A stretch of 64,000 nt of DNA from NCBI GenBank assembly GCA_049697115.1, contig JBAVVD010000095.1, positions 15,797 through 79,796 of the forward strand. The letters are read 5' to 3'. A program made the translations under genes and the position numbers. Under the pieces are notes generated by a model that had not been told where the DNA came from, did no database searches, and saw nothing but the letters and a program-made list of their open reading frames with translations. Each line of letters begins with the position of its first letter. Position 1 is the stretch's first letter. Positions 2 through 19,657 of this stretch are shown here, piece after piece. Source of the DNA: Candidatus Aminicenantales bacterium. GTDB taxonomy: Bacteria; Acidobacteriota; Aminicenantia; Aminicenantales; UBA4085.

Positions 2-979
2 TACACAAAGCAAGCTAGGGCCTTGAATAACGCATTCCGGGGCCAGGTCCATTTCGCCCTCGAAAGGTTGTACTTCCAGGCCGGCGGAGGATTGATAAAC
101 GCCAAGGAACGCATTAGCACGGAATTGAACATCCCCGTCCGGCGCAAGCAGAACGACCTCGCGGGACAGGCTTTTTGGCAGATTTCCGAAGGGTCGGCAG
201 TCGCATTACAATACAGGTCATTCACCTTTGAATACGAGAACCCTACAGACGGAAGTATCAATCTTCGGGAGAACCTCAACAGAAAGTCAAGTTACATTAA
301 CTTCGCGGCCTACCTCCAGCTTGTCTCGGGGACGAGGTTTTACCTGGACGCAGAATACGGGTCATTTGTTTTTAGGGAACCCATATCGAGCTTCAAAGAC
401 TCCCGGAGCTACAGCATCTTCGGGGGGGTCGAATTCTTGCCGGCACAGGCGGACAAAGAACAAATAAGAGGTATCCAGGGGAGAATCAATCTGGGATACA
501 AGAGCTTTGATATCCTCGACCCCCAGCTAAAAGACTACAAAGGTCTGGTCGGTAATACGAGTATCGCCATAAATATTATTAAATTTACAACGCTCCGCGG
601 AGTATTTGCCCGGGATATCCAATTCTCCGTCTATTCAGACATCCCTTATTATATCCAAACAGTCTACGGGGCGGGTTTTTCTCGCGCCTTCACGAGCAGA
701 ATCAATTTAACCTATGACCTCTCCTTCAGCCGGAATGATTATGCGCAACTTGAAGACAACGGATCTAGGGGAGCAAGGCTGGATAAGTATATAACCCATG
801 TTTTTGGACTCGGCTTCAAGCTGAGGAAAGATCTCGAACTCAACTTGATGGCGAGCCTCAGCACGAGGAGCTCGAATCTTGTCGAGGAGGTCAATCACCG
901 CAACTTTATCGGTTTCAATCTGACATACGGCTATTCCCCTGGCGGCATTTCCATGCTTGCGAGCCCATTTTCTCGATAG
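2..979 (+). CDS. Outer-membrane beta-barrel protein (5'-partial), likely partner of the downstream short OPX/Wza exporter
   Basis: ORF open to the window edge (track start 23 is an internal TTG). The sequence shows amphipathic alternating-residue beta-strand character and a C-terminal aromatic residue near the end. Its stop overlaps the start region of the Wza-like gene. Confidence 0.4.
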   Translation, partial: YTKQARALNNAFRGQVHFALERLYFQAGGGLINAKERISTELNIPVRRKQNDLAGQAFWQISEGSAVALQYRSFTFEYENPTDGSINLRENLNRKSSYINFAAYLQLVSGTRFYLDAEYGSFVFREPISSFKDSRSYSIFGGVEFLPAQADKEQIRGIQGRINLGYKSFDILDPQLKDYKGLVGNTSIAINIIKFTTLRGVFARDIQFSVYSDIPYYIQTVYGAGFSRAFTSRINLTYDLSFSRNDYAQLEDNGSRGARLDKYITHVFGLGFKLRKDLELNLMASLSTRSSNLVEEVNHRNFIGFNLTYGYSPGGISMLASPFSR

Positions 980-1080
980 ACGTGATCCCTTTGGGCTTGA
1001 CTCAAAGTCCCGCCTGAGTTACGATAGAAAGGATTATTTTATAATGTTTATTAAAGCAAGAAGTCGAAGAGAAATTCTCA

Positions 1081-1964
1081 TGAGAAAACTACAGGAGAAG
1101 GCGAAAAAATCGAGATATACCATCCCAAGCACCATTCTTGTAATTTTGATAATCTTCCTTATTTCTTCAGTTTCACAGGGAGAAATCCTCGGCCTTCAGC
1201 AAGAAAGCACGCTTCCTGTCTCGGATTATAGAATCGGATCCAAGGACCTGCTGGAGATCAAGGTTTTCGAGCTGCCCGAACTCAATCAGACTGTCCGCGT
1301 CTCCGAAGACGGCTCGATCAGCCTTTCCTTGCTCGGCAAGGTGGATGTCGCGGGGCTGACTGCCCAGGAGCTGGAAAAGAAGCTGGCTTCGATCCTGGAT
1401 CAAAAATATACGAAGGCCGGCCATGTCACGGTTTTTATCAAGGAATATCAGAAAGTATCGATTATGGGTGCTATAGGGAGACCCGGCAACTACGAATTGG
1501 TCGGGCCTACGACTCTTCTTCAAGTCATTTTACAAGCCGGAGGATTGACGGCCCAGGCCATGAGCGAGCTCTATGTCTATAGACGGGAGAAAGACGGCCG
1601 GAAAACCAGAATCGCGGTCAACCTGGAAGATTTGATCAGCGGGAACCAAACCCTGAACATCGACCTTCAACCCAATGACGTGGTCAGCATTCCGATCGAT
1701 CAAATGCTCACCGTCTATGTGTATGGGGAGGTCAGGAATCCTGGCGCGATTCAATTCAAGCAGTCGAAAAAGATCACCTTGTTGCAGGCCATCGCCCAGG
1801 CAGGCGGGACGACGGAATGGGCATCGAAATCGCGCGTGATGATCAAACGAAAAGATAAAAAAACCGGGAAAGATATGAAGATTCGGGCGAACCTGAAATC
1901 TATAATCAGCGGAAAAACTTCCGACATCGTCCTCGAAGAAGGCGACATCGTGATTGTCCCTTAA
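1081..1964 (+). CDS. wza: Polysaccharide export protein, OPX/Wza family (Poly_export + SLBB domains), short form without a C-terminal membrane helix
   Basis: PGNYELVGPTTLLQVILQAGG and later QAIAQAGG-type SLBB motifs. An N-terminal signal-like stretch follows the ATG at about 1081 (track ORF begins at 957 TTG). The protein ends right after the second SLBB domain (…EEGDIVIVP). Confidence 0.8.
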
Positions 1965-4254
1965 GCTAACGGCTATTTTAAAAGAGACCATGATGGCTGA
2001 ACATAACATTGAAACCAAAAAAAGGCCTATAGCACAAGTCCAGCAGTATTGGCGCGATATTCTCAAATGGAAATGGACTGGCTTGATTTTCTTTTTCACG
2101 GTCGTCACGGGCGCGACTCTTTACAGCCTCTTGACAACGCCGATATACACGGCCAGCGGCAGCGTTTGGATCGAGGATGTGCCCAAGATCCTGCCCTTCG
2201 AAGAGATCCAGGCGCTCGATGCCGGCACTAACCTGCCGAGTCACGCACGATTGCTTCAGAGCCGGGCCCTGGCTGCCAAAATTATCGAAAAACTCAAGCT
2301 TTACGAGAATCCAGAATTCGTCGGGAAGGTAGCTAAAGGGAAAGGATCCATCGATGCTTCGGACCCGATATTCAGGGAGGGGCTTATTGAGAGCTTTTTG
2401 AGGAGTATCGCCGTCGCGCCGGTCGTGGGGACCCGATTGGTGGATGTTAAATTCAGCAATCGCAACCCGAGGCTTGCTGCCGAGATCTTGAACGCTCTTT
2501 TTGACGGATTCATCGATATGATCGTCAGGAAGAGGTACATGACGTCGGAACAAGCCACGGAATTCTTGAACACCCAGGTCGCGACACTCCGGACCGAGAT
2601 CGAAGAGCTCGAGAAAAAGTTCAACGAATATGGGTCGGAGAAGGATATTCTCCCACTCACCGCCGCGGAAGCCCCGGCCGTCACCAGGCTGTCGGAAGTC
2701 AATAGAGCCCTGACGAACGCGACGATCGACCGAATCAACAAACTTAATTATTATAACCAACTCAAGTCGGCCCCTCTGGGAGAAATTCCTGATGCCCCGG
2801 CGGGCACCCTCATCCAGAGACTACGCGAGCAATTTGCGACGCTCAGCCGAGAGTATGCCAGAAGGCTGGCCACCATAAGGCCGGAGTACCCGGAGATGCA
2901 GCGTCTTAAATCCGAGCTCGACGCGGCTAGCGATGCTCTCCAGAAAGAAACCCAAAACTTTGTCGGTACCGCTTATGCCGATTATCAGGCCGCACTCAGG
3001 AAGGAATGGTCCCTCCAGAATCTGCTCGAAGATTTAAAGAACGAAGCGTACAAGGCCAACAGCAATTCCATCCTCTACAACAGCCTGCGGATTGAGCTCG
3101 CAAACAAAAAAATTCTTCTCGAGGCTCTTTTTAAGAGACAGAGCGAAGCCAATGTGTCCTCACGGCTCAAGGGTTTAGAGGCCGTAAATGTCTGGATCGT
3201 GGACAAAGCACGTTATCCCCTGAGGCCTTCATTCCCGAATAAGCGAAAGATCGTCCTCATCGGCCTTCTGATCGGCCTAATAGGGGGAGTGGGTTTGGCC
3301 CTTGGCCTCGAATATTTGAATCAAACGGTCAAGACATCGAAAGACGTGGCGATCTCCACGGGATTCCCCATCCTAGGGGTCATCCCCTCTTTCGACGCAG
3401 AGACGAAATCGAAAGGCCCCAGGTCCGAGTTCACGAGGCTCGTCAACATTATCAGAGGTGGCGGCGGGGCGAAGGAGAGGGAGAATAAATCCGCGCTACG
3501 GAAAGCAGACACCAGCATTCTGAGAGCGTCCCCTCACCGCCCGGACATCGCCGACGAAGAGCGCCGAAGAAACACGATCGAGCTCATCGCCTCGTGCAAG
3601 CCCCAATCGATACACTCGGAAAGCTACCGCTCGATCCGAACCACTCTACTTATCTCCTACCCCCCGGGGAAAATCAAGTCCATCCTCTTCACGAGCCCGC
3701 TGGCCCGGGAAGGGAAATCCTCAACGGTCTCTAATTTGGGTATCACTCTGGCCGAGGCCAACATGCGTGTCGTGATCGTGGATTCCGACCTTCGGAAACC
3801 GAAACAGAGCCAAATTTTCGGCTCAGATAACGGTCCGGGCTTGACACGGTTCCTGAGTTCTTATGTCGACCCGACGGACCTCGCGAAGCCCACCCAGATC
3901 CCGAACCTCTGCCTTATTAACAGCGGGCCTCTCCCCGCCAACCCCCTCGAACTTCTCACGTCGGAGAAGATGAGTGAACTCGTCGCATTCCTGAAACGGA
4001 ATTTCGAATATATCCTCTTCGATACCCCTCCAATCCTGGCGGTTTCCGACGCCTTGGCCCTGGCCCCCATGGCCGACGGGATTATCCTCATCGCCCGTGG
4101 AGGGCACACGCCGATGCAAGCCATGAAGCAGACCAAGCAGAAGCTCGACGCCCACAAGCTCAAGTGCCTCGGCGTTATTCTTAACGGCGTCAACCTGATC
4201 GAGCAGGACGGCTATTACGCCCGGCAATACTATCACTATTCCAAATCGGACTGA
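1954..4254 (+). CDS. wzc: Polysaccharide co-polymerase / bacterial tyrosine kinase (Wzc/PCP-2a family)
   Basis: N-terminal Wzz-like region with a TM segment, long coiled coil and second TM (IGLLIGLIGGVGLALGL). C-terminal P-loop kinase domain: Walker A SPLAREGKSST, Walker B-like DTPPIL. C-terminal tyrosine cluster YYARQYYHY. Overlaps wza by 11 nt. Confidence 0.85.
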   Translation: MSLKLTAILKETMMAEHNIETKKRPIAQVQQYWRDILKWKWTGLIFFFTVVTGATLYSLLTTPIYTASGSVWIEDVPKILPFEEIQALDAGTNLPSHARLLQSRALAAKIIEKLKLYENPEFVGKVAKGKGSIDASDPIFREGLIESFLRSIAVAPVVGTRLVDVKFSNRNPRLAAEILNALFDGFIDMIVRKRYMTSEQATEFLNTQVATLRTEIEELEKKFNEYGSEKDILPLTAAEAPAVTRLSEVNRALTNATIDRINKLNYYNQLKSAPLGEIPDAPAGTLIQRLREQFATLSREYARRLATIRPEYPEMQRLKSELDAASDALQKETQNFVGTAYADYQAALRKEWSLQNLLEDLKNEAYKANSNSILYNSLRIELANKKILLEALFKRQSEANVSSRLKGLEAVNVWIVDKARYPLRPSFPNKRKIVLIGLLIGLIGGVGLALGLEYLNQTVKTSKDVAISTGFPILGVIPSFDAETKSKGPRSEFTRLVNIIRGGGGAKERENKSALRKADTSILRASPHRPDIADEERRRNTIELIASCKPQSIHSESYRSIRTTLLISYPPGKIKSILFTSPLAREGKSSTVSNLGITLAEANMRVVIVDSDLRKPKQSQIFGSDNGPGLTRFLSSYVDPTDLAKPTQIPNLCLINSGPLPANPLELLTSEKMSELVAFLKRNFEYILFDTPPILAVSDALALAPMADGIILIARGGHTPMQAMKQTKQKLDAHKLKCLGVILNGVNLIEQDGYYARQYYHYSKSD

Positions 4255-4296
4255 ATCCCTTTTTAGCACACCGGGGCAGGAGGGATTCCCTTTTCA
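4254..4296 (+). terminator. Possible intrinsic terminator after wzc (7-bp stem aatccct/agggatt, about 20-nt loop, then cccttttc)
   Basis: Inverted repeat directly after the TGA stop followed by a T-rich tract. The loop is long, so this is weak. Confidence 0.25.
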
Positions 4297-4574
4297 GGGC
4301 TAGAGGCTGTGTTTGATCCCTCCCCCCGGGCTCTTTTTCCGCCTAACGCCCCCTCAAGGCTCGGTAAGCCCGCCCAAGCGCCATGTGGCTGGTCTTCGGG
4401 CTCGAGGCGGGCGCCTGCGCGATCCGGATCCGGGCGAAGGTTTTCGACCTGACGCTCCTGGACGATCGGATCGACCGGGAGAACAAGGATATCTCCTTCG
4501 TCTCATCATATCCGGTTCAACGTAATCGGATGGAAGGAATCCGTTTGATAAATGTGCGTCAACGGACTAACCGA

Positions 4575-6092
4575 TTACAGCCTTGCTTCGGTGCGATGTC
4601 TGACGTAGTTCACTCTATATTTCATTTCTTTTAACAGCGAGTAAATCCCTATTTCTTTCAAACACTTGGCGACTTTATCCTGCAACTTGTATGGAGGATT
4701 GATCGGCCACCTCGTCAATTCTGGCCACATTTTGCGGATCATCTCTCTAAAAATCACGGGTTTATAGTAATTGGTATACCTATCATCAACACCTAAAAAG
4801 ATCTCGTAAAGCTTATGGCTGTCATATGGGTCAATCTCTTCAATCGCGATATCGGATTCCGAATTTCCAGTTGCCCCCCAATTTCCAAGCCAATGTTCCC
4901 AGTACAGAAGTGTTAACACATTTAAACCGTACTCTCTGCCCACGGGCAGCAACTCAGCCACTATACTTTCGCCTTGCGTTATCGCGTAGCGGCCTTCTTT
5001 ATATCCCATTTTATAGGCAATTCTGTAACTGTTCAAGTTCTTCGGCTCTTTCCCAAACCGTATGCGACCTATTTCTCCAATGCCCAGAATGTTGACTTTC
5101 TCTGAATGGTCTTTGAAATAAATGTTGTAAATTGTAGGCAGGATTCGTTCCGATGCAAAAAATGTGTTGCTTAAAAAGATTTGCCGGAATTCATCATCAA
5201 CATCGTTCGGTACATCGTGAATATGAAATGGAACCCTGATACTCTCAAAAATCTTTTTTGGAACTGAAATGTCAGGATGACTAGGACCTAAGCCCTGGCT
5301 ATTAATAAAATAATATATTTTATCCTGGATGTCTCTAGTCGCCGCAAGCAGAGTTCTGCTATCCGTTCCTGCGGTCACGGCCATCATGACCGAGTGCCGA
5401 TTCGCCACTGCTCTGATACTTCCCTGCAGAAACGAACAGCTCTTGGACACTGCCTCTTCTAAATCTAACTGTTTTATGGGTTCATTCGGCCAATAACGCC
5501 GAGCTTCACATCTGTTTATATCGAGATAGTGATTGGGCAGGAGGTGTTTGATACCCTCGTAGTATGTTTCATCACCGATCCATTTACAATAGGGGTTCCA
5601 TTTTGAATTCTTCGAATGCGTTGTGTAGTATTCTAAAAAGTCGGGATCGCTTCTCGGTAGTATTTTAGGTTTTGCGAATTTGATCAGCAGATTGGGCTGG
5701 GATCCGCATATGATCTGGTTTTCTTTTGAACAATAGTATATTTCCCTCAAAGCAAGAGCATCATGCAGGATAACAGTTTTCTTATCATCTTTGTATAACA
5801 GCGCATAACTCCCTGCATATCGCTTGATCCATGAAAATAAACCTTCCATGTTGCATGTGCTGACAAATATGTCTTTTAAAATATCGGTGTTTCCCTTTTC
5901 AGGTTCAGCTGGACTAAAAATACTTCCAATTAGCACAATGTTCTTCCTTAAATCCGTAACTCGATTGACCTCAAGATCAGGATGAGCATGAAGATAGTAT
6001 CGGCCTATCTGTAAACACTTCCAGTCGACAAGCGATGTGATAGGAGCCCTACAAAAAAGAAATTGTCGCCGGAACTGAAGCTTTTCGTACAT
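4575..6092 (-). CDS. Asparagine-synthetase-like PP-loop protein (possible sugar amidotransferase), function uncertain
   Basis: 505 aa with an internal VMMAVTAGTDSR motif resembling the SGGxDS PP-loop. No N-terminal Cys nucleophile. Sits inside the polysaccharide locus in the lower-GC block. Confidence 0.3.
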   Translation of the reverse strand: MYEKLQFRRQFLFCRAPITSLVDWKCLQIGRYYLHAHPDLEVNRVTDLRKNIVLIGSIFSPAEPEKGNTDILKDIFVSTCNMEGLFSWIKRYAGSYALLYKDDKKTVILHDALALREIYYCSKENQIICGSQPNLLIKFAKPKILPRSDPDFLEYYTTHSKNSKWNPYCKWIGDETYYEGIKHLLPNHYLDINRCEARRYWPNEPIKQLDLEEAVSKSCSFLQGSIRAVANRHSVMMAVTAGTDSRTLLAATRDIQDKIYYFINSQGLGPSHPDISVPKKIFESIRVPFHIHDVPNDVDDEFRQIFLSNTFFASERILPTIYNIYFKDHSEKVNILGIGEIGRIRFGKEPKNLNSYRIAYKMGYKEGRYAITQGESIVAELLPVGREYGLNVLTLLYWEHWLGNWGATGNSESDIAIEEIDPYDSHKLYEIFLGVDDRYTNYYKPVIFREMIRKMWPELTRWPINPPYKLQDKVAKCLKEIGIYSLLKEMKYRVNYVRHRTEARL

Positions 6093-6137
6093 CTATTGTC
6101 CTTCCATAAGCCAGAGTAAAATATCATGTTTTCATTG

Positions 6138-6980
6138 TCATTGAAGAACCTTGAGGGCCCGATTCTTTATGAAACGAACAACGTCATAATTTCCATAAAC
6201 TCTCGCTCTAAACACTCGCCCAGGCATTGAGGCTCCGGTAAGCTCCCTATGTAACAGGTATGGGCTCGACCTGACACTGTTGAAGCCAGGTACCGTAGTC
6301 ACCGCTCCCTTGTATCCCAAGTCTTTCAGCACTTCTGCCAGATTTATCTCAGGATTGTAATACACCCCAGATGGGTACGCAAAGTATTTAATCTTTACGC
6401 CGGTTACTTTCTCCAATCTCATCTTGTCCTCGGCAATTTCGTATCTTGCTTGAGCGCTATCCCGAAGCTTTCCCAGATTGCAGTGATTCAAGGTGTGCCC
6501 ACCAATGGTAAAACCTTCCTCAACAATCCTTCTCACATCTTCAAAGTTAAAACCTCTCGTTATTCTCCCGGGACCCAGTGTTAAGAACAGTTTCGACCGT
6601 AGAAAATCGGCCTCATCATCCTTTGAGATACCGACAAAACCGGACGTCACGAAAAATGTCGCTGGCAATCCAAGCTCCTTCAGGACTGGTACTGCGTGGG
6701 TGAGCCAACTTTTGTACCCGTCATCGAAAGTAATGACTACATTGATTTTCTTTGATGATAATCTGCCTGCGAAAAAATCTTCGAGGCTTACAACATTCGT
6801 GCTTCGTTTCAGAAAGTAAATATTAGCCTTGAAATTACTGAAGGTCTCGGGCAGTATGTCATGGAAAGTCACGAACCTTGTTACTGGTTGACGCTGAAGG
6901 CGGAGGACTAAATTTCTGATTCTGGAATATCCCAGGTAGTAAAGTAATAAAACACAGAGATCCTGACTACGTATCATCAT
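6138..6980 (-). CDS. Polysaccharide deacetylase (NodB-homology domain)
   Basis: VVITFDDGYKSW…HTLNH motifs typical of carbohydrate esterase family 4. Confidence 0.8.
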   Translation of the reverse strand: MMIRSQDLCVLLLYYLGYSRIRNLVLRLQRQPVTRFVTFHDILPETFSNFKANIYFLKRSTNVVSLEDFFAGRLSSKKINVVITFDDGYKSWLTHAVPVLKELGLPATFFVTSGFVGISKDDEADFLRSKLFLTLGPGRITRGFNFEDVRRIVEEGFTIGGHTLNHCNLGKLRDSAQARYEIAEDKMRLEKVTGVKIKYFAYPSGVYYNPEINLAEVLKDLGYKGAVTTVPGFNSVRSSPYLLHRELTGASMPGRVFRARVYGNYDVVRFIKNRALKVLQ

Positions 6981-7094
6981 GTTTCTACACTTCGAGTAAA
7001 AATCACGGGTGTTAGTAACTCCAGTATGTTTCTAAAACATGCCATGTTGCGAGAAGTCTTACTTATCCTGAATTTCCCTCGTTTTAGGGGCATA

Positions 7095-7225
7095 AGAATT
7101 TCTTTTTAGCCTTCACGCTGGAACGCCCTTCGTTAAGCTCGGAATCGATACCTCCCACCACGAAATGATGATATTCCCGGCCGCGGGTCGCTGTCAAGAA
7201 CAAGGAAATGGCCTGAACAGGCGCC
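7095..7225. repeat. Copy A (truncated, about 130 bp) of an intergenic repeat family shared with copies B and C
   Basis: ttt(c/t)ttttagccttc…cgttaagctcggaatcgatacctccca…atgatgatatt…gtcaag…ggaaatggcc aligns with 11519-11640 and 17836-17960 at roughly 80-85% identity by eye. Confidence 0.7.
7168..7197 (-). promoter_or_regulatory. Sigma-70-like promoter module inside repeat copy A: TTGACA(-35) N18 TATCAT(-10), facing the deacetylase gene
   Basis: Minus-strand TTGACA at 7197-7192 and TATCAT at 7173-7168 with an 18-nt spacer. The identical arrangement is kept in copies B and C. Confidence 0.4.
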
Positions 7226-7539
7226 GATTTGCTGACCGTCGAACGGTTTCATTTACTTTTTCCATAGCGGTTGAGCCAGTTGAAGGAGCACAAGGCCGGC
7301 GGGGGCAGATGATCTTGGCGGAATCGCGGCGAGATGACGATTTGAGATTGAAGGATGGGCCAGAGAAGCAATCCGACGGAGAGATAGGATAGACGCGGCC
7401 CCTTGGTTTTCGAAGGCGGCCGGATCGATGGATGCCCGTCGGCGACGGCATGGCCGACGGCGGTGAGTAGAAGACGGCGAGACCGATCTGGAGGACGCCT
7501 GCTGGAAAGTGCTTCACTTCAGCCTCCACTCCCATCGCG

Positions 7540-8556
7540 TTACAGCCATTTATCATGTTTTTTTCTAAATAGGCCAGGGAATAAAACAGCTGCGCGACAA
7601 ACATAATGAAACGCCAAACTTTTTGCTCCATAATACCAAAGCCATTCTTTCCAGGTGAATGTCTTTTTCCTACTTCGCACTTCATCAGCCAATTCTCTGT
7701 TTCTTGTATGAAAAGCAAGCCGTAATGAACAATCGTTCCAAAAATCTTCTTGCTTGTCTTTAATATGTTGCGGAAGATTGTATTTATTACAGAGGTAAAG
7801 AATAAGTTCTGCGTCGGAAAGTGTGTGTCGCAATACCTTTTTAATATCCTTGCTTCTGGTAGCTGATTCGTCCGTGATGTTATGAGTGGCCATAGACTCA
7901 GGAATATAGTGCAGTTGGGCTTTTGTTGCCATCTCCGCCCAGAGTTGTGTATCACCCATTAGAAAATGGTCACTTTGGTGAAGGTGGGGATCCGATTCAA
8001 TAATCTGCTCACAGAGAGCATGTCGAACCATAACAGCACAAGTTATAATACCACGCGAAAAGTCACCTTTGTTTTCACAAAAGTCAAATATATCCGGGTT
8101 TTTAGGCATCTCCAACTTTCGGTGTTTGATAAAGTCTTTTATCAGTTTCCCGGATTCGACATGATAAACATCGTAACTGGAATACACCAACCCGCATTCC
8201 GGATGGCTTTCCATATAATCCACCTGTTTTTGTAGTTTATCCGGATGAGGCCAGTAATCATCCCCTTCGCAAAAGGCACTGTACTTCCGCTTGTAAGCTT
8301 TCATAGTGCGATAAGTATTTTTCTTCATCCCGACATTTTTATCTGATGTGATCACTCGAATGATATCCGGGTACTTTTTTTGATATTGAAAAACAATCTC
8401 TCGTGTTCCGTCGGTGGAACAGTCCTCACCAATTACCAGCTCAAAAAGAAAGTTCGTTTTCTGCTGTAAAACCCCTTCGATCGCCTGGGCGATAAAAGGG
8501 GCATGATTGTAAGTAATCATCTTGACGCTGACCAAGGGCTCTGTCATATCAAGCAA
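7540..8556 (-). CDS. Glycosyltransferase family 2
   Basis: N-terminal VSVKMITYNHAPFIAQAIEGVLQQ…IGEDCSTDGT and a CEGDDYW (DXD-like) motif. Confidence 0.85.
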   Translation of the reverse strand: MLDMTEPLVSVKMITYNHAPFIAQAIEGVLQQKTNFLFELVIGEDCSTDGTREIVFQYQKKYPDIIRVITSDKNVGMKKNTYRTMKAYKRKYSAFCEGDDYWPHPDKLQKQVDYMESHPECGLVYSSYDVYHVESGKLIKDFIKHRKLEMPKNPDIFDFCENKGDFSRGIITCAVMVRHALCEQIIESDPHLHQSDHFLMGDTQLWAEMATKAQLHYIPESMATHNITDESATRSKDIKKVLRHTLSDAELILYLCNKYNLPQHIKDKQEDFWNDCSLRLAFHTRNRELADEVRSRKKTFTWKEWLWYYGAKSLAFHYVCRAAVLFPGLFRKKHDKWL

Positions 8557-8590
8557 CTCCTATAAGGATCAAACTTAATTATTTATTTTA

Positions 8591-10057
8591 TTATCTGGCG
8601 GTGCCATCTCTCGAAAAAGGTATTCTCTTCCATACCACTTGCCACAGCTCCATAAATGCCGTTAGCCGAAACAGCCTGCATATGCAAACATATAGAACAA
8701 TTCCAATGGGAATTTGTACTACAAGCATGATCCAATGGTTGGGAAATGGCAGCAGTCCGGCCGCATATATTGCGATGCCCATCAGCACGGCCATGATCAG
8801 ATAGGAGAACACGTCACGCATCTGCTCCCATATCGAATATCCGATCAGAACACCCGCATAATAACTATTCAGATAGTAAGCGATGAGGGACATCGCAATC
8901 ATACCATAAATCATCGCGGATATGCCCCATCGCCATGTGACGGCAATGTTGATGACAATCAAAGCCTTCTTGATAATCTCAAGGCGTAAAAATAAATCTG
9001 AACGTCCCAAAGCCATCAGTAAATTTAAATTTATCACGTGTAAAGAATACAGCACGCCGGCAACACAAAATAGCTGCAAATAGGGAATACAAGGAGCCCA
9101 CTTTTCCGTCAACATCACCAGCACCAATGGACGGGCGACTACTGCAAGGCCGATCATCATTGGGAAATTCACGAGGACCAGCACAGTCAACGCCTTTTTC
9201 AATCCCTTTTTCAATCGAGCCGGATCATCCTGGATGCTGGAGAAAACAGGAAAAGTGACCCGGCCGACTATCCCAGCTAATGTATTCTGGGGAATCTCCT
9301 GGAAGGTCTTGGCGCGTGTAAAAAAACCCAGATCAGTCGCCGAGAACAGCTTGCCGATGACCAATAAATAGATATTGTCAAATAGTCGGTTAAGCAAATC
9401 TGAAAACAAGAGGCGCGAGCCAAAACCAAACATTTTCCGTAGGGCGCTAAAGCTGAAGATCATTGCCGGCCGCCAGGAACTGAAAAACCAGAGACAAATA
9501 GTCCGGAAAAGCGCTCGGGATACTTGCTGGACAACCAGGCTCCATACGCCAAAACCAACGGTGGCCAGGGCAACCCCGAGTAAGCCGGACAGTGTGCTGG
9601 CTATCAGGCTTACCTTGGTCAGGATCTTGAAGTTGAGTTGCTTTGTGAAAATGACGCCTTGGATCAAACCAAAGGAATTGATCACGATCTCCAGCGACAG
9701 AGCCCGCGTCAGGGGAGTCAGGATTGGCTGTTTATAGAAAGCAGCAATCCAGGGAGCAACCAGGCACAATAGGCCCGCAGCCGCCAGCCCTACCACGATG
9801 TTGAAATAAAAAATCGAACAGGTGTCGAGTTGTGTGACGTCGCGTTTCTGAATCAGGGCGGCCCCGAACCCACTATCGAGGAATGACTGCGCCAAAGCCA
9901 TGAAGATCATCAGCATCCCGATCAGACCGAACTGCTCCGGAAATAACAGCCGCGCCAGGACGATTCCGATGATAAACCGCACTCCTTGGAGCCCTACAGA
10001 CTCAAGAAAACTCCAGGAAAGAGCATGAAGGGTTTTGGATCTTAGAGAATCGGCCAC
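8591..10057 (-). CDS. wzx: Polysaccharide flippase (Wzx-like, MOP superfamily polysaccharide biosynthesis protein)
   Basis: 488 aa, highly hydrophobic with about 12-14 predicted TM helices. Conserved N-terminal LSWSFLESVGLQGVRFIIGIVLARLL pattern of the O-antigen/EPS flippase family. Confidence 0.75.
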   Translation of the reverse strand: MADSLRSKTLHALSWSFLESVGLQGVRFIIGIVLARLLFPEQFGLIGMLMIFMALAQSFLDSGFGAALIQKRDVTQLDTCSIFYFNIVVGLAAAGLLCLVAPWIAAFYKQPILTPLTRALSLEIVINSFGLIQGVIFTKQLNFKILTKVSLIASTLSGLLGVALATVGFGVWSLVVQQVSRALFRTICLWFFSSWRPAMIFSFSALRKMFGFGSRLLFSDLLNRLFDNIYLLVIGKLFSATDLGFFTRAKTFQEIPQNTLAGIVGRVTFPVFSSIQDDPARLKKGLKKALTVLVLVNFPMMIGLAVVARPLVLVMLTEKWAPCIPYLQLFCVAGVLYSLHVINLNLLMALGRSDLFLRLEIIKKALIVINIAVTWRWGISAMIYGMIAMSLIAYYLNSYYAGVLIGYSIWEQMRDVFSYLIMAVLMGIAIYAAGLLPFPNHWIMLVVQIPIGIVLYVCICRLFRLTAFMELWQVVWKRIPFSRDGTAR

Positions 10058-10222
10058 GATGTTTTATTCCTGTACATGCTAAATAATCCTAAGAATCGCA
10101 ACTTCCGCCTAACGCAAATCAAGCCCTTTCATTAATGAGCATTTCAACCATACTACAATCAACTGTTCCGCGTTTCTTGGGAAATATCGATTTAAAACCA
10201 ATTTACGAAACAAAGAATTATC

Positions 10223-11350
10223 CTATCCCTTCTGAAGAGACAAAATGATGTCACAAATGGTCTCGACTTCAGAAAGTTCCAGGCCATCGTAAATCGGCAA
10301 TGTCAGTATGCGGTCAGCAACGCGACGGGCGACGGTCAAGGGATCCTTTATCGAAACACTTCGGTAGCAGGCGTAATCGCAAATTAAGGGGTAAAAATAT
10401 CGGCGAGAAAATACGTTGTATTGTTTGAGAGCCTCATATAATGCATCCCGGCTCATTCCAAACTCTTGTTCGTCCACTTCGACAGGCATGTAAACATGGT
10501 TGTGCTTGATATCAGGAGATAGAGCTGGTAGAAGATGAATACCCGGTATTTCCTTGAGGCGCTGCCGATATAAATCAGTGATCTTACCTCGCTTGAGAAT
10601 TATTTCTTCCAGATATTTTAGAACCAGACTTCCCATTAAGGATTGCATTTCGTTCATTTTGGCATTGGTGCCGGGCATGACCACTTCGAGCTCGTTTTTG
10701 AAACCGAAGTTCTTTAAATAGTCGAATAATCCTTTGAGCCCTGACTCTTTGAATGTGAGCAGTCCACCCTCGATGGAGTGGAACGACTTGGTCGCGTGAA
10801 AGCTGAACATACTCAGATCGCCAAAATGAGCGATAGACTTGTTGCCGATTTTTACGCCGAAAGCGTGAGCGGCATCATATATAAGCTTCAAATTATGCCG
10901 TCTTGCAATATCGGCTAATGCATTGAGTTTACAAGGGTAACCGTAAACGTGAACTGCCAAAATGGCTGTTGTCCAGGGGGTGATTGCCGCTTCGACCTTT
11001 TCCGGGTCAATGGTGCAATAATCTGGTTCGATGTCCACAAAGACGGGCCTGATCTTGTTCCAAAACAACGCGTGGGTTGTTGCCACAAACGTAAAAGGAG
11101 TGGTGATAACCTCTCCCGAGATTCCCATCCCCTGCAATGCGATTTGAAGAGCCAGGGTCCCGTTGTTAAAAAGACAGATATTGTCAGTCTCGAAAAAGCT
11201 GGACAATTCATGAGTAAACCGCTGTAAAATGGGCCCATTGTTTGTTAACCATCCTGTCTCCCAGATTTCGTTAAGTCCCTGGCAAAATTCCTCCACCGGT
11301 GGTAAAAAGGGCCTAGTTACAAAAATAGGTTTCTCAAAAGGTTTTATCAT
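10223..11350 (-). CDS. DegT/DnrJ/EryC1/StrS-family PLP-dependent sugar aminotransferase
   Basis: DAAHAFG…GDLSMFSFHATKSFHSIEGG (PLP lysine) and a C-terminal LTLPIYDGLELSEVETI motif. Confidence 0.85.
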   Translation of the reverse strand: MIKPFEKPIFVTRPFLPPVEEFCQGLNEIWETGWLTNNGPILQRFTHELSSFFETDNICLFNNGTLALQIALQGMGISGEVITTPFTFVATTHALFWNKIRPVFVDIEPDYCTIDPEKVEAAITPWTTAILAVHVYGYPCKLNALADIARRHNLKLIYDAAHAFGVKIGNKSIAHFGDLSMFSFHATKSFHSIEGGLLTFKESGLKGLFDYLKNFGFKNELEVVMPGTNAKMNEMQSLMGSLVLKYLEEIILKRGKITDLYRQRLKEIPGIHLLPALSPDIKHNHVYMPVEVDEQEFGMSRDALYEALKQYNVFSRRYFYPLICDYACYRSVSIKDPLTVARRVADRILTLPIYDGLELSEVETICDIILSLQKG

Positions 11351-11511
11351 AAATCTCCTTTATACATATTATGACTACTATTAAGATTCAGTTCCACCTT
11401 AAGAAAGGCTACAGGCACAAATACACTTTCTCGGTTTCTCCCCATCACCGCGCCTCCGCTTCAGTCTTTTTTATCCACTTCACCATACACCCTACACCGT
11501 GCTTTAGTAGA

Positions 11512-11845
11512 TGATTAAGGGTATTTCCTTTTAGCCTTCGCGCAGAAACGCTCTTCGTTAAGCTCGGAATCGATACCTCCCATAACAAAATAATGATATT
11601 ATCGGCCTGGGATCAATGTCAAGGAAATGGCCGCGAAGAGGGTCATCCGGCCGCATCATCGTTCCGGACGACTACGAAATCCCCCAAAAGACGATAGCCC
11701 TCCCTCCCCCTCTTGAAATCACCTGTCCTTAATAATATTCCCCGCTCTCCTCGGCCGCCATCAAGGCGACCGGCTCGAAGACATGCGACGGAGGCGGCTT
11801 CTCGGCAACAAATGTCAACTTCAGAGAATCGATCACGGGTAGCGT
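11512..11845. repeat. Copy B (about 330 bp) of the intergenic repeat family
   Basis: Near-colinear match to 17830-18165 across the whole length (…gccgcatcatcg(t/g)tccggacga…cttgaaatcacctgt…ccccgctctcctc(a/g)gccgccatcaaggcgacc…acatgcgacggaggcggcttctcgg…) and to copy A over the first about 130 bp. Confidence 0.75.
11593..11622 (-). promoter_or_regulatory. Sigma-70-like promoter module in repeat copy B (TTGACA N18 TATCAT), facing the aminotransferase/flippase operon
   Basis: Minus-strand TTGACA at 11622-11617 and TATCAT at 11598-11593, 18-nt spacer. About 235 nt upstream of the start at 11350. Confidence 0.4.
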
Positions 11846-12066
11846 TATTCGCGGGGAAATGTTAATATCAACAGGTTGGAAGACTTCTGGAGCTATGCGA
11901 AAGAACGGTCGACAAAGTTTCGCAGTCTGTCGGCGGAGAAGTTACTTCCATATCACATAGAAATGGAATTTCAATATAAGATAGGAGAGGAAGCATCTCC
12001 ACCAGGCTCATTCAGAATCTCTACGATTTCGCGTAAAAATCATTTAAAATTCTCTAAAAATAACTA

Positions 12067-12984
12067 ATGTCTCAAAAGCATCACATTTGCGTGTGCATCT
12101 GCACATACAAAAGGCCTAAACAGCTCGATCGCTTGCTGTGGAAACTGGAAAAACAGGAAACCGGAGGTATTTTTGACTACTCGATCGTCATTGTGGATAA
12201 CGACAGGTCTGAATCTGCGCGGCTGACCGTGGAATCCCATGCGGGTCAATCAAATATTGCGATCAGCTATCATGTGGAGCCGCAACAAAACATCGCTTTG
12301 GCGAGGAACAGAACCATAGAGAATGCCAACGGTGATTTTCTTGGTTTCATTGATGACGATGAGTGGCCGGACTCGAGGTGGCTTTTCAATCTCTTCGGGG
12401 CGATCAATCGCTATAAATCGGACGGGATTTTGGGCCCGGTCTTACCCTGCTTTGAAAAAGAGCCACCCCAATGGGTATTAAAAGGACGCTTCTTTGATAG
12501 ACCCGCTCACCCGACAGGACATGTTCTGGAGTGGAAGAATACACGGACAGGAAATGCGCTGTTAAGAAGAGACATCTTTAAAGATGATCGTGAGTGGTTT
12601 CATCCTCGATTTGGCAGAGGAGGTGAAGACCGCGATTTCTTTAGGAGAAAAATTGGAGAAGGACATGTTTTCGTTTGGTGCGACGAGGCCCCCGTTTTTG
12701 AGACGGTGCCGCCGGAACGCTGGGGACAAAAAGTCCTGATGAAAAGGGCGCTCTTGAGAGGGAAAATGGCCCTCCTTTCCTCAGAATCTGGTCCCCAGAG
12801 TATTCTGATCTCGGTGGGAGCCGTGGCCATTTATTCTGTTTGTTTGCCGCTTCTCTTTGTTCTTAGCCCTATTATCGGTTATGACGTTTTCATGAAATAT
12901 CTGATCAAGAATTGTGACCACCTCGGTAAAATATTAGCGTTTCTAAAAATCGATTTGGTGAGAACAAAATACGTCAGTTTATGA
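12067..12984 (+). CDS. Glycosyltransferase family 2
   Basis: ICVCICTYKRPKQLDRLLWKL…SIVIVDNDRSE and FIDDDEW (DXD) motifs. Confidence 0.8.
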   Translation: MSQKHHICVCICTYKRPKQLDRLLWKLEKQETGGIFDYSIVIVDNDRSESARLTVESHAGQSNIAISYHVEPQQNIALARNRTIENANGDFLGFIDDDEWPDSRWLFNLFGAINRYKSDGILGPVLPCFEKEPPQWVLKGRFFDRPAHPTGHVLEWKNTRTGNALLRRDIFKDDREWFHPRFGRGGEDRDFFRRKIGEGHVFVWCDEAPVFETVPPERWGQKVLMKRALLRGKMALLSSESGPQSILISVGAVAIYSVCLPLLFVLSPIIGYDVFMKYLIKNCDHLGKILAFLKIDLVRTKYVSL

Positions 12985-13374
12985 CGAGGAGGTGAAAGTG
13001 TACGCTAGCCTGCGTAACATGACCCTCTACAAATAGAGTCTCTATCCTCCCTGCGAATAATAATGTACATTCCTGGGTGAAGTGCCCCCCAAAACCTTGC
13101 CCGATCAGCGACAGGTGCTATATGCAAAGTCAAGTGATTTTAAATAGTATTTGAAAGTATCCGTTGGCGGCACGGTGGCGTTCGCGGGCCGCCATAGGAA
13201 ACGATGCTCATGGGCCCCAGGGAAGGGCGTCCTTCGAGTTTCTCGCATGGTCGCCCTGCAGTTCATATCTCTCGTGATTATATGTCATTATTTGCACGCT
13301 GACTTTCATGCAAGCAACTTTGAAATCGGGCAAATTGGAGACGAATGGCTCCTCTAGACTCTGTACCCTTGTCT

Positions 13375-14427
13375 TTACTTGTTCGGCGGTTTGCTTTCGA
13401 TGATTGCCCAATTAGGTTTTCTCCCGCTGTAAATGCGGGTTGGCTCAAACGGAATGATCGCGGTGAGTTGCAAGCCGGCCATCGCCAGTAAAGCCCGATA
13501 CTCTGCTTCGGTGCGTTCCCGACCACGTGTGAGCAACAGCATGCTCAAATCGCTGCTGACCGTTACTGGAGCATCGACAACACGCTCCGGCATAATCTCC
13601 TCAATCAGCAAGAGTGTGCTGTCATCTCGCATCGCGGCGCGGCAGTTGCGCAGGATTTGCGCTGCGCGCTCATCATCCCAATCGTGAATGATGTTGGACA
13701 TGAGATAGAGCGCGCCACCCGGAGGAACGGTGTCGTGAAAGAAATCTCCAGCTATTGTTTGACAGCGATCCGCCACACCATTTTGGGCGAGATAATGCTG
13801 GGCTTCAACCACCACCTTGGGCATATCAAAGATAATACCCCGAAGATGGGGATGGGCGCGCAAAATGGCGATGAGCAGCGCGCCATTTCCTCCACCCACA
13901 TCAACGATGGTGCTGGCCCTAGAGAAATCATAAGCTGCGACGACGCCCGCTACGCGATCATCAATCCCCCGGCTCAAAAGATCGTTGAAGAGGGCGCCAA
14001 TGTGAGGATGTTGTGCAAAATAATCAAAGAAGGACATCCCAAAGATGTGATCAAAAGCAGGTTCGCCTTTCTGAACGGCGTGGAGCATCCCTTGCGCTGC
14101 ACGATAGTTCACTTCACCAATATAGAGAATTCGGTTACGCATCGAGTCAGGATGATCGGAGCGAAGGAGGTCGCCCAGAGGCGAGAGCCGAAAGCCTCCC
14201 TCGTTTTCCTGGACCAGCAAGTTCAGCACGACCATCATTCGAAGAAACCGATAAAGTGCCTGTGGAGACGCGTTCACTGCCTGGGCCAGCTCGTGTGCTT
14301 GTTTGGGGCCATTCGCCAAGTGATCGGCAACCCCAAGTTTCACAGCCGTATACAGCACCTGGGTGAGTGAAAATCCGCCAGCCATCTGGCGTAAGGTGTC
14401 AGTTAGTGATTCTTGAGTAGAAGGCAT
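13375..14427 (-). CDS. SAM-dependent O-methyltransferase (class I, COMT-like with N-terminal dimerisation domain)
   Basis: VVDVGGGNGALLIAIL…IIFDMP motif I region and overall O-methyltransferase family-2 architecture. Confidence 0.75.
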   Translation of the reverse strand: MPSTQESLTDTLRQMAGGFSLTQVLYTAVKLGVADHLANGPKQAHELAQAVNASPQALYRFLRMMVVLNLLVQENEGGFRLSPLGDLLRSDHPDSMRNRILYIGEVNYRAAQGMLHAVQKGEPAFDHIFGMSFFDYFAQHPHIGALFNDLLSRGIDDRVAGVVAAYDFSRASTIVDVGGGNGALLIAILRAHPHLRGIIFDMPKVVVEAQHYLAQNGVADRCQTIAGDFFHDTVPPGGALYLMSNIIHDWDDERAAQILRNCRAAMRDDSTLLLIEEIMPERVVDAPVTVSSDLSMLLLTRGRERTEAEYRALLAMAGLQLTAIIPFEPTRIYSGRKPNWAIIESKPPNK

Positions 14428-14505
14428 CGTTTTGTCTCCGGTTAGATAGTTTTATCTTGGCAAAATAGAGGCATGAGCAGCACAACTCCTTTTTCATCCG
14501 ACCTC

Positions 14506-14844
14506 CTATAAAACCGACCGAGGTGAAGCTAGTCCGCACATGTCTTCACTCGTGTAAGATAACAGTCTCTCTCTAACTTCCTGCCCATGCTCAACCACAA
14601 AGCGAATGATCCGACAAATTTTGCCGACCTCTTCTGACCCGACCGCTGTGCCCGTGGGTAGGGACATCACACCTTGCACCAGCTTTTCCGTTTCAGACAG
14701 CATGAGCCCTGCATGGGGAAAATAGGAACGATAAGGCTCCATATGATGATAAGCTGGATAAAAGTAGCGCCGGGCCAGGACGTTTTCAGCATGCAGAACT
14801 TGAACTAGTCGAGTTCGAGAGCTCTTAAGTATACAAATTCCAAT
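14506..14844 (-). pseudogene. 3' fragment of a DegT-family aminotransferase (C-terminal about 110 aa only)
   Basis: Translation …LHAENVLARRYFYPAYHH MEPYRSYFPHAGLMLSETEKLVQGVMSLPTGTAVGSEEVGKICRIIRFV matches the conserved C-terminus of DegT enzymes (compare RRYFYP…LTLP in the 10223-11350 gene). Upstream frame closes at a stop near 14845. No N-terminal part is present. Confidence 0.5.
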
Positions 14845-14928
14845 TTATTACCTCCTCGCATGCTTGCATTCGTCTCATTCAGACGGATCGTGGAACAAGC
14901 TCTTCGCCATGATCCGCATGTAGCCTTA

Positions 14929-15834
14929 TTATCCCATTTCGCCACTCCTATATGCCGGAAAGTAATCTGTCCTGGGAATAGCCTTTGCATCCACAAGTGC
15001 TGTGTATTTTGCCTGATCAAAAACCCTCCCGCACAAATAGGCCGTTCGAGTTCCAGTAGACCATCCGCGCTTGAATTGGCTCAAGCCATCCGTCCTGTCA
15101 TTTTGAACACCGGAGGTTCCGCCCCAATCGAGCCACCGGACTTTGCCAGAGAAGTACTGGAGGTTGGACCAGTACAGTGCATACGATACCCCCAATTTGT
15201 GACCGACTTCGCTGGCCCCCATCAGGTGACCATAGGCCACTTCCCCTTGCACAAAGCAAAGGGCTGTCCCAATTGTCGTGTTCTGATGGAAGGCGCGGAA
15301 CATTACGAGTCCCGGAATACTAAGTTGCTTGAGAAAAGCCGCTCTCGAAAACGTCCTGAGTCCCCTGACGTTATGTCTGTCAGTCAAAGTAGCGTAAAGG
15401 GCCGTCCATTCGTCAATGTGCTGCCTTGGGTCCTCACACGTTTCTGTACGAATAATCTCTAACGCTTTTCGACTGTAATAGCGATGATGCCGGGAGACAA
15501 TCTCATTTATGGGACGATGAAGGTCAGCGACATAGTGTTCCTTGAAAGAGATGACGACATCAAAGCAGCGATGCAGACAGGCCTCATCATATTCTCCAAA
15601 AGGGTCAGCGACCAGGGCCAGACTTACCAGATCGTCTCCTAGACCGTCCAAATCAGCGGCAAGCTGAGACCAGTCCTGACAAGCAAATAAAGGGTAACAC
15701 CCCATGGCATCACGGTAGGGAAACCCCGGTATCGGGCGCTCCAAGATCCACCCCCCGCAACGAGGCAATTCGCGCGGGGTGCCGAACTCGCTCAATGATT
15801 CTGCGTATTGAGGGTGCAAGTATCCCGTCACCAT
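14929..15834 (-). CDS. FemAB/CelD-like (Acetyltransf_6 / GNAT-fold) acyltransferase
   Basis: About 300 aa with …TTIGTALCFVQGEVAYGHLMGASEVGHKLGVSYALYW…WLDWGG pattern typical of BioF2-like/FemAB-type N-acyltransferases in polysaccharide loci. Overlaps the upstream gene by 7 nt. Confidence 0.4.
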   Translation of the reverse strand: MVTGYLHPQYAESLSEFGTPRELPRCGGWILERPIPGFPYRDAMGCYPLFACQDWSQLAADLDGLGDDLVSLALVADPFGEYDEACLHRCFDVVISFKEHYVADLHRPINEIVSRHHRYYSRKALEIIRTETCEDPRQHIDEWTALYATLTDRHNVRGLRTFSRAAFLKQLSIPGLVMFRAFHQNTTIGTALCFVQGEVAYGHLMGASEVGHKLGVSYALYWSNLQYFSGKVRWLDWGGTSGVQNDRTDGLSQFKRGWSTGTRTAYLCGRVFDQAKYTALVDAKAIPRTDYFPAYRSGEMG

Positions 15835-19569: not shown

Positions 19570-19657
19570 TAGTTGTCGTACGCTCTTATAAAATCCATTT
19601 CCGGCCTCTTTAACTCAGCCATTGCATGACGGAGGATAATATGAATAAACGCATCGC

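Follow-up and report, generated by a model that had tools for sequence, protein, structure and literature searches.

The work of Schwabe 2022, Saïdi 2022, and Mellouk 2026 (PMC9601211, PMC9603273, PMC12819527) defined composite translocons built from a Class-3 OPX protein and a β-barrel. In Myxococcus xanthus, direct binding of WzaB to WzpB and to WzcB, and its necessity in vivo, were demonstrated, and WzaB was found to depend on lipidation of its N-terminal Cys19 for oligomerisation and on a C-terminal Phe-Phe for porin binding (PMC12819527). EpsY/EpsX/EpsV and ExoA/ExoB/ExoC are paralogous systems, in which a Class-3 OPX likewise goes with an 18-stranded porin (PMC9601211, PMC9603273, PMC12819527). 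The Myxococcus Wzp family comprises WzpX, WzpS, and WzpB, that is, EpsX, ExoB, and MXAN_1916, respectively, and outside the myxobacteria, Saïdi 2022 found no Wzp homologues (PMC9603273).

The arrangement of a short OPX with a barrel, described in 2022, is common. Class-3 OPX make up 46–49% of all OPX proteins and were present in 13 of the 14 Acidobacteria genomes surveyed (PMC9603273), while coupled short-OPX/barrel pairs, D1D2D2 variants included, were identified by bioinformatics in 10 phyla (Schwabe et al. 2022, PMC9601211). This latter survey dealt with fully sequenced genomes only, so that uncultured Aminicenantes were probably not covered. A literature search for papers on EPS export in Aminicenantes returned none. 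Here, we describe such a pair at the start of a window of 64,000 nucleotides, the whole stretch of DNA that was analysed, from a Candidatus Aminicenantales bacterium. The initial annotation of this DNA had proposed the pairing, and the finding is correct but ordinary.

Results

An OPX protein that ends after its second SLBB domain

The features of the locus are collected in Table 1. The Pfam model Poly_export (PF02563) matched the OPX with an E value of 5.9e-22 and 78.1 bits (cut-off, 28), and the SLBB_2 and SLBB models matched two stretches each. These were the only Pfam matches at E ≤ 0.1, and neither Wza_C nor GfcC was found. In the AF2 model (pLDDT 78.7), two β-grasp domains are followed directly by the stop codon. 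Indeed, the C-terminal …LEEGDIVIVP closes on the final strand of the second SLBB domain, the last element being strand 290–293, and the final 18 residues contain no helix. The last helix assigned by DSSP on this model covers residues 272–276, that is, 5 residues, and no α-helix longer than 9 residues lies in the last 20, which is the rule used by Schwabe for short OPX proteins. With 294 aa, the protein lies 14 aa above the empirical 280-aa screening cut-off of the same authors (PMC9601211). This ending was conserved in 48 of 48 aligned homologues, 276–327 aa long, so the short C-terminus is not a truncation artefact. The initial annotation, which had the protein stopping directly after a second SLBB domain, was thus right on this point.

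Table 1. Features at the start of the window, with coordinates in the window
Feature	Coordinates	Strand	Description
Outer-membrane β-barrel gene, 3′ part	2..979	+	Residues 119–443 of 443; stop TAG 977–979; strands 4–18 of 18
Barrel periplasmic C-terminal tail	935..976	+	…SPGGISMLASPFSR after the last strand; low pLDDT (AF2)
Intergenic spacer barrel–OPX	980..1079	+	Alternative in-frame ATG at 1044
OPX gene	1080..1964	+	294 aa; Class-3 / D1D2D2; without D4 helix; 0 Cys
OPX N-terminal signal region	1080..1181	+	Residues 1–34; basic n-region, hydrophobic TILVILIIFLISSV, then putative SQG↓E
Poly_export (PES) domain, Wza D1 equivalent	1221..1439	+	Pfam, residues 48–120
First SLBB domain (D2)	1449..1688	+	SLBB_2, residues 124–203; AF2 model
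Second SLBB domain (D2′), at Wza D3 position	1704..1961	+	SLBB, residues 212–268; strands 209–293
PCP-2a (Wzc-like) co-polymerase / BY-kinase	1990..4254	+	754 aa; Pfam, NCBIfam, TM segments
Wzx-type flippase	8591..10057	-	Polysacc_synt_3; 10 hydrophobic segments; Pfam and hydropathy
Remaining polysaccharide cluster	4575..17617	-	Sugar-modifying and glycosyltransferase genes
GT2 gene within cluster	12067–12984	+	

Comparison with E. coli Wza pointed in the same direction. The phmmer alignment of the OPX with Wza (2J58) broke off at about chain residue 294 of 359, and the top Foldseek match was 2W8I, the engineered D4-less Wza24-345 (E 8e-19, 326 columns). The D1-D2-D3 rings of Wza (2J58, 2W8I) thus correspond to the whole mature OPX, at 24–27% identity. 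Unlike Wza, the OPX has neither the D4 amphipathic helix nor a lipoprotein signal; instead, its gene is accompanied by a separate one for a barrel. The lack of D4, which had also been claimed beforehand, is supported by the missing Wza_C, the helix-free end of the AF2 model, the early stop of the Wza alignment, and the match to 2W8I. By its domains and helices, the protein is a Class-3, D1D2D2-type OPX and not a Class-1 OPX such as Wza, which carries the D4 helix and Wza_C. By sequence, the closest relative with a solved structure was a Class-3 OPX from M. xanthus, WzaB (9N9A, E 4e-21).

The OPX contains no cysteine and is therefore not a lipoprotein; a lipobox was also absent from 46 of the 48 homologues. 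Judged from its sequence, the N-terminus would be a type-I signal peptide or a signal anchor rather than a lipobox, and the putative cleavage site given in Table 1 was read by the same means. An exact-sequence look-up of the OPX, with either start, returned no match, and genomic context was obtained through the barrel protein instead. Both the barrel ORF and the OPX ORF have hundreds of homologues, with E values down to 1e-209, showing that neither is a chance ORF.

The upstream gene encodes an 18-stranded β-barrel

The barrel ORF is cut by the window edge and represents the 3′ three-quarters of its gene. The complete 443-aa protein (P0001) was retrieved from public data at 100% identity, the 5′ end of the gene lying on the upstream locus L001, and NCBI labels it [quoted passage not shown] It belongs to PF10082 (BBP2_2, putative β-barrel porin 2; 54.7–55.9 bits vs a cut-off of 23.7), and a precomputed match to this family is present in most of its homologues. 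AF2 placed 18 long strands, running antiparallel, in the stretch from residue 57 to residue 428 (pLDDT 88.9, pTM 0.83). The full protein begins with a signal-peptide-like N-terminus (…GRSFG↓WGK, no Cys), whose type was judged by eye, and the …P(F/L)SR ending of its C-terminal tail is conserved across the family. Signal peptide, family, and strands together confirm that the gene upstream of the OPX encodes a β-barrel, as was first supposed.

Unlike the AlgE, PgaA, PelB, and BcsC porins, which work with a synthase, this barrel goes with an OPX/PCP pair; it has no detectable sequence relationship to them and no TPR or periplasmic partner domain. PF10082 holds about 2,000 clusters at 50% identity. 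A literature search on the accession PF10082 returned no paper and hence no stated function, and a search on PF10082/DUF2320/EpsL returned only unrelated "EpsL" matches.

Gene order and pathway context

The barrel and OPX genes had been described as overlapping. This proved wrong, as they overlap only if the mechanical ORF, with its start at TTG 957, is taken for the OPX gene. A start at ATG 1080 is backed by annotation and homologues, and it leaves a gap of 100 nt after the barrel stop (64 nt with ATG 1044), compared with gaps of 39–114 nt in relatives. Since no terminator-like site was found between the two genes, their co-transcription is likely on the evidence of the spacer sequence. Rfam, tRNA, and promoter/terminator scans gave nothing relevant to the region.

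In all three relatives examined, whose barrels are 52%, 42%, and 37% identical to this one, the order is PGT, barrel, OPX, and PCP-2a, and one of the three has Wzy_C upstream. In addition, for at least 15 pairs of barrel and OPX matches, the longest contig has the same length. The coupling is thus kept across relatives. As in the D1D2D2 couples of Schwabe, a barrel of at least 16 strands lies within five genes of the OPX, with a PCP nearby (PMC9601211). The OPX also resembles the members of such couples in its own make-up, including VpsN of the Vibrio cholerae VpsN/VpsM couple, as it has a PES domain, two SLBB domains, and no C-terminal helix.

The protein encoded directly downstream of the OPX is a Wzc-like PCP-2a, so that the partner is of the same kind as in the E. 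coli Wza/Wzc system. It has TM segments at about 30–48 and about 430–450, with a periplasmic domain between them that is about 380 aa long, and a fused C-terminal P-loop tyrosine autokinase (BY-kinase). Pfam assigned Wzz, GNVR, and AAA_31 to it, and TIGR01007 matched with 160 bits (cut-off, 108). The periplasmic domain of E. coli Wzc is of similar size.

The Wzx-type flippase lies five genes away from the OPX, which, with the adjacent PCP-2a, places pathway genes within five genes, and its presence assigns the locus to the Wzx/Wzy-type pathway. According to Pfam and hydropathy scans of the window, Wzx is the only multi-TM protein in the cluster, and no Wzy polymerase was found in the window. 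The minus-strand cluster further encodes a 505-aa protein with weak similarity to asparagine synthase, a polysaccharide deacetylase, GT2 glycosyltransferases, a DegT aminotransferase, an O-methyltransferase, a FemAB-like acetyltransferase, and a DXD glycosyltransferase. A Bac_transf phosphoglycosyl transferase (PGT) is encoded upstream of the barrel.

Likeness to the Myxococcus systems

The locus shares the main traits of the WzaB/WzpB/WzcB system. The OPX is, like WzaB, devoid of D4, and the D1-D2 regions of the two proteins are 34% identical in structural alignment. The barrel gene precedes the OPX gene, as wzpB precedes wzaB, and like WzpB, the barrel is 18-stranded, has a type-1 signal peptide, and is adjacent to a Class-3 OPX. 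The PCP-2a partner and the Wzx-type context are common to both as well. The likeness to the EPS/BPS systems of Myxococcus, put forward from the outset for a truncated OPX with its dedicated barrel, is therefore supported by relatedness to WzaB, synteny, and gene order.

There are differences, however. WzaB-type proteins are 190–217 aa long, whereas the OPX of this locus, with its second SLBB domain, reaches 294 aa. WzaB is lipidated, which the OPX, having neither Cys nor lipobox, is not. WzaB ends in …DIVFVPESFF, whereas the OPX ends in …GDIVIVP and lacks the Ser-Phe-Phe tail that determines WzpB binding. Moreover, the Arg-Arg motif by which WzaB binds its PCP aligns to Lys-Ala, and the periplasmic domain of the PCP is not extended, unlike that of the Myxococcus PCP. 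Both determinants essential to WzaB being absent, assembly must differ in detail at this locus.

The barrel belongs to PF10082, whereas WzpB has no match to this family. With hhalign, comparison to the single WzpB sequence was not significant (probability 1.6%). We then built a WzpB (MXAN_1916) profile of 68 sequences from Myxococcus loci, and the barrel profile matched it with a probability of 60%, a score of 43.9, and an E value of 8.6e-5 over 349 collinear columns, as compared with scores of 15.6–27.0 for reversed and block-shuffled controls. This suggests that the PF10082 barrel and the Myxococcus Wzp proteins share a remote collinear similarity only. Altogether, the differences from the Myxococcus models, that is, remote barrel similarity, an unlipidated OPX, and no Phe-Phe tail, are modest.

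Discussion

The barrel and OPX are best read as a composite Class-3 (D1D2D2) OPX/β-barrel translocon, and we think it likely that, in an exopolysaccharide or capsule pathway of the Wzx/Wzy type, they form the part at the outer membrane. The upstream Bac_transf phosphoglycosyl transferase would start the Und-PP-linked repeat units, Wzx would flip them, and the Wzc-like PCP-2a would control their polymerisation. After Sec export, the OPX would be wholly periplasmic and would oligomerise, probably as an octamer like Wza and WzaB, into a three-ring channel, D1-D2-D2′, about as tall as Wza D1-D3 and sitting on the PCP. The top OPX ring would dock on the periplasmic rim of the barrel. Since the OPX is without a D4 helix, the polymer would then cross the outer membrane via the lumen of the 18-stranded barrel encoded next to it, which probably supplies the pore for an OPX unable to cross this membrane alone. 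For the oligomeric state, the docking, and the barrel lumen as conduit, we infer from the Myxococcus and Vibrio systems. The size of the PCP-2a periplasmic domain agrees with a three-ring OPX, which would not require an extended PCP; the two-ring EpsY, by contrast, pairs with a long EpsV (PMC9601211).

Another possibility would be that the barrel is an accessory, either a Wzi-like lectin, which would anchor or organise the finished polymer at the cell surface, or an incidental substrate porin, with the polymer taking some other route. In structure searches with the barrel, OccK/OprD porins and maltoporin scored as well as AlgE, and such searches consequently cannot tell a conduit for polysaccharide from a substrate porin. 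Still, we regard an accessory role as unlikely. Pfam gave no match to the Wzi family or to porin families other than PF10082. Besides, the partner of Wzi is a Class-1 Wza of full length, whereas the membrane-spanning part is missing from the OPX, so that some conduit is needed. Last, the tight barrel-OPX-PCP synteny, kept down to 37% identity, resembles that of the couples validated by experiment, EpsX/EpsY, WzpB/WzaB, and VpsM/VpsN.

We also considered whether the locus could be an exosortase/PEP-CTERM EPS system, of the Methylobacillus EpsL/EpsE or the XrtA type, with the barrel as the EpsL orthologue and with the sorting of PEP-CTERM proteins as a role alongside EPS production. As a matter of fact, the sole NCBIfam match of the barrel was TIGR03014 EpsL (E 7e-9), found in the Methylobacillus-type XrtB/PEP-CTERM EPS loci; it covers the C-terminal 130 residues, and PF10082 is shared. 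The best NCBIfam matches of the OPX were XrtA/PEP-CTERM TIGR03027 and EpsE TIGR03028, and the PCP matched the pepcterm_ChnLen and pepcterm_TyrKin models. Yet the scores fall under the equivalog cut-offs, with 35–37 bits vs 275 for EpsL, 149.8 vs 180 for TIGR03027, and 141 vs 263 for EpsE, and no exosortase was found among the window ORFs scanned or the called genes of locus L001. We thus set this idea aside as very unlikely. Even if true, it would keep export by a short OPX with a barrel and would amount to a sub-classification, not a different mechanism.

Finally, it is highly improbable that an uncleaved signal anchor holds the OPX at the inner membrane as a periplasmic extension of the PCP, the barrel acting alone like AlgE or PgaA. 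In favour of this reading, the hydrophobic stretch of ~16–18 residues is longer than usual in type-I signal peptides and comes after a strongly basic region, AF2 models residues 17–32 as a helix, and there is no lipid anchor to keep the OPX at the outer membrane. Against it, a small-residue −3/−1 motif, S-Q-G↓E, follows the hydrophobic core (an A-x-Q↓E-like junction is retained there in homologues), residues 33–46 are modelled with low confidence as a linker, which would suit an N-terminus that is cleaved or flexible, and ~30% of Class-3 OPX are predicted to be Sec/SPI secreted (PMC9603273).

Read as a composite translocon, the locus leaves the current picture of polysaccharide export unchanged. 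It extends the composite OPX/β-barrel route to uncultured Candidatus Aminicenantota and links PF10082, a family for which our literature search gave no function, to an export route. We wondered whether PF10082 barrels and unlipidated D1D2D2 OPX might constitute a mechanistically distinct sub-type of Class-3 translocon, which seems doubtful to us. If so, the OPX ring would assemble on another scaffold, candidates being the PCP octamer or the barrel itself, and the …P(F/L)SR tail of the barrel would perhaps insert into the top SLBB ring. Such a sub-type would give the otherwise uncharacterised PF10082 its first function. The pair is useful for annotation, as such genes now carry the label "outer membrane beta-barrel protein" or "hypothetical," and it offers a natural variant, without lipid anchor and Phe-Phe tail, for dissecting the assembly of Class-3 translocons.

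A β-barrel gene precedes a short OPX gene

[quoted passage not shown] The cluster genes located downstream of these are mostly on the opposite strand.

Features of the export locus and of the adjoining cluster (window positions)
Feature	Position	Strand	Remarks
Barrel ORF (3' part)	2-979	+	Frame 2, open from window edge to TAG 977-979
Barrel C-terminal tail	935-976	+	15 residues, low pLDDT, past last strand (…FNLTYGY)
OPX gene	1080-1964	+	Stop TAA 1962-1964
PCP-2a gene	1990-4254	+	754 aa; Wzz and GNVR domains, fused BY-kinase domain
505-aa ORF	4575-6092	-	Within polysaccharide cluster; weak TIGR01536 match

The initial annotation had proposed a β-barrel upstream of the OPX protein, and this was borne out. 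The fragment in the window is identical (100%) to residues 119-443 of P0001, a 443-aa protein with a signal-peptide-like N-terminus, MRKKSKMKANEGLIIAVTAVIFSVLLFPGRSFG/WGK, encoded on an 82-kb contig of a 'Candidatus Aminicenantales bacterium' MAG. The barrel scored above the gathering threshold of PF10082 (BBP2_2, 'putative beta-barrel porin 2'), and its sole NCBIfam match was a sub-threshold one to EpsL over the last 130 residues. An AF2 model built on 71 homologues (pLDDT 88.9, pTM 0.83) showed 18 long antiparallel strands between residues 57 and 428, taking 104-110 and 113-117 as a single kinked strand, with a short helix (38-49) before the strands and a low-confidence tail after them. The barrel fold is established, but the fold alone does not reveal function. 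The family is large, with 2,072 clusters at 50% identity (E≤1e-3) or 1,090 (E≤1e-10). PF10082 has no demonstrated function so far, and our literature search on it found no paper naming it. The ending of the tail, …P(F/L)SR, is conserved family-wide (last columns of the barrel alignment). As the tail should be periplasmic, it is a candidate for the motif at which the OPX ring docks.

The overlap between the barrel and OPX genes put forward in the initial annotation was not confirmed. A TTG at 957, which appears in a mechanical ORF list and implies a 23-nt overlap with the upstream stop, was rejected as unsupported. In L001, the public locus carrying P0001 and an independently assembled version of this DNA, the called gene starts at the equivalent of 1080; the NCBI protein P0083, identical to the window OPX, has 294 aa; and the 48 aligned homologues, mostly 291-299 aa, begin at the Met of 1080. 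The gene might instead start at the in-frame ATG 1044, which is preceded by GAAAGGA. Depending on the start chosen, the spacer is 64-100 nt, and gaps of 39-114 nt were found in three relatives. A terminator scan found no terminator-like hairpin between the two genes.

The OPX protein lacks D4 and a lipid anchor

The absence of D4, the C-terminal membrane helix of Wza, was verified in several ways. Pfam recognized Poly_export (residues 48-120), SLBB_2 (124-203) and SLBB (212-268), and no further domain. In the AF2 model (48 homologues, pLDDT 78.7), a hydrophobic N-terminal helix leads through a low-confidence linker into D1, after which come two β-grasp domains; the final structural element, strand 290-293, is immediately followed by the stop codon. 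The top PDB sequence match was 9N9A (E 4e-21), the Class-3 OPX WzaB of Myxococcus xanthus (PMC12819527). The alignment with E. coli Wza reached only chain residue ~294 of 359, beyond which ~27 OPX residues remain, enough to finish D3 and none for D4. The top structural match was 2W8I, an engineered Wza24-345 without D4 (326 columns, 322-residue target). Since the ending …EEGD(I/V)(V/I)I(V/I)P is kept throughout the family of 48 homologues, the short OPX is the native form.

The OPX contains no cysteine, and 46 of its 48 homologues have no lipobox; hence, it cannot be a lipoprotein. A basic region, TILVILIIFLISSV and SQG/E make its N-terminus resemble a type-I signal peptide. The two remaining homologues, P0158 and P0193, carry a lipobox-like L-A-A-C in the signal region, and their nearest relatives have L-A-A-F at this position. 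The aligned sequences suggest that the family switches occasionally between SPI and SPII export.

Comparison with the Myxococcus systems

Class-3 OPX proteins, defined as Poly_export-SLBBn only, make up 46-49% of all OPX proteins, ~30% of them with SPI signals, and are present in 13 of 14 Acidobacteria genomes (Saïdi et al. 2022, PMC9603273). Proteins >250 aa have a D1D2D2 architecture (PMC9601211). The 18-stranded barrel EpsX, whose closest structural homologue is AlgE, is required for EPS synthesis; it binds EpsY, a D1D2-OPX, and stabilises it (Schwabe et al. 2022, PMC9601211). The structure of WzaB has been solved; its oligomerisation is lipidation-dependent, and it binds the barrel WzpB via C-terminal Phe203-Phe204 and the co-polymerase WzcB via Arg106-Arg107 (Mellouk et al. 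2026, PMC12819527).

We retrieved 77 myxobacterial wzaB loci with a WzaB fragment as query. In Myxococcus sp. Y35, a 421-aa wzpB lies 13 nt upstream of wzaB, that is, in the same barrel-then-OPX order as in the window. In contrast to the window OPX, WzaB has a lipobox (…LPAC) and ends in …FVPESFF, and its Arg-Arg motif is replaced by Lys-Ala in the window protein, which also lacks the Phe-Phe tail. WzpB, unlike the window barrel, has no PF10082 match, and sequence homologues of the Wzp barrels were reported only in myxobacteria (PMC9603273). Comparison of our barrel profile with the single WzpB sequence was not significant, whereas comparison with a profile of 68 WzpB orthologues gave an almost full-length collinear alignment of 349 columns (score 43.9, E 8.6e-5, probability 60%), as against scores of 15.6-27.0 for a reversed and eight block-shuffled control profiles. 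We read this profile similarity as remote relatedness or shared topology, not family membership.

Everything that could be tested on sequences and models fits a pair of the D1D2D2-OPX/β-barrel kind, which supports the short-OPX/β-barrel export reading. On the Wzc-like PCP, the mature OPX would assemble into a periplasmic channel of three rings, with the barrel as the exit for the polymer; we consider this joint mechanism quite likely. The periplasmic domain of the PCP (~380 aa) is about the size of that of E. coli Wzc, and the three rings would reach about the height of Wza D1-D3, so that an extended PCP would be unneeded, whereas the two-ring Myxococcus systems need one. Given the missing lipid anchor and Phe-Phe tail, the Lys-Ala replacement and the PF10082 barrel, docking details must differ from those of WzaB. 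That PF10082 barrels and unlipidated D1D2D2 OPX proteins assemble through a different interface is a tentative proposal, to which we give a rather low probability. The export pair belongs to a known, common kind, occurring here in an uncultured phylum.

The surrounding polysaccharide cluster

Directly upstream of the barrel gene, L001 carries a four-gene cassette (609-4873) encoding a DegT aminotransferase, a GFO/IDH oxidoreductase, a hexapeptide acetyltransferase and a Bac_transf phosphoglycosyl transferase with a CoA_binding_3 domain. The whole order, from DegT to barrel, OPX and PCP, was kept in all three barrel relatives examined (loci L079, L080 and L081; barrel identities 52%, 42% and 37%), each with an OPX made of Poly_export and two SLBB domains. 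The cassette is similar to the WbpB/WbpE/WbpD pathway, which yields 2,3-diacetamido uronic sugars; this similarity is a hint as to what kind of sugar comes first in the repeat unit.

The downstream cluster encodes a polysaccharide deacetylase, GT2 enzymes, a second DegT, methyl- and acyl-transferases and a Wzx flippase (Polysacc_synt_3, E 3e-95). The 505-aa ORF had no Pfam match and scored 23 bits (E 2.8e-5, cut-off 267) against TIGR01536, glutamine-hydrolysing asparagine synthase; it may be a sugar-acid amidotransferase. No Wzy (Wzy_C or a multi-TM protein besides Wzx) was found in the cluster (1-22000) or in the 5 kb upstream on L001. One of the three relatives has a Wzy_C gene (L080, 231-1613) just upstream of the DegT gene, and the Wzy of the window cluster may sit further upstream on the contig.

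At the cluster edge, a 385-aa protein with Laminin_G_3 (ConA-like lectin) and VanZ domains adjoins an M64 (IgA-peptidase-like) metallopeptidase (18412-20395, +). Past ~22 kb, most genes are unrelated housekeeping ones (nuo, dnaK and others), and this part of the window showed no exosortase. Two adjoining ORFs of 249 and 358 aa (23266-25354, +) matched nothing in Pfam or NCBIfam. A NuoF (Nuo51) homologue (55303-56565, -) also matched SLBB and SLBB_2 in Pfam, so SLBB matches alone are no marker of an OPX protein.
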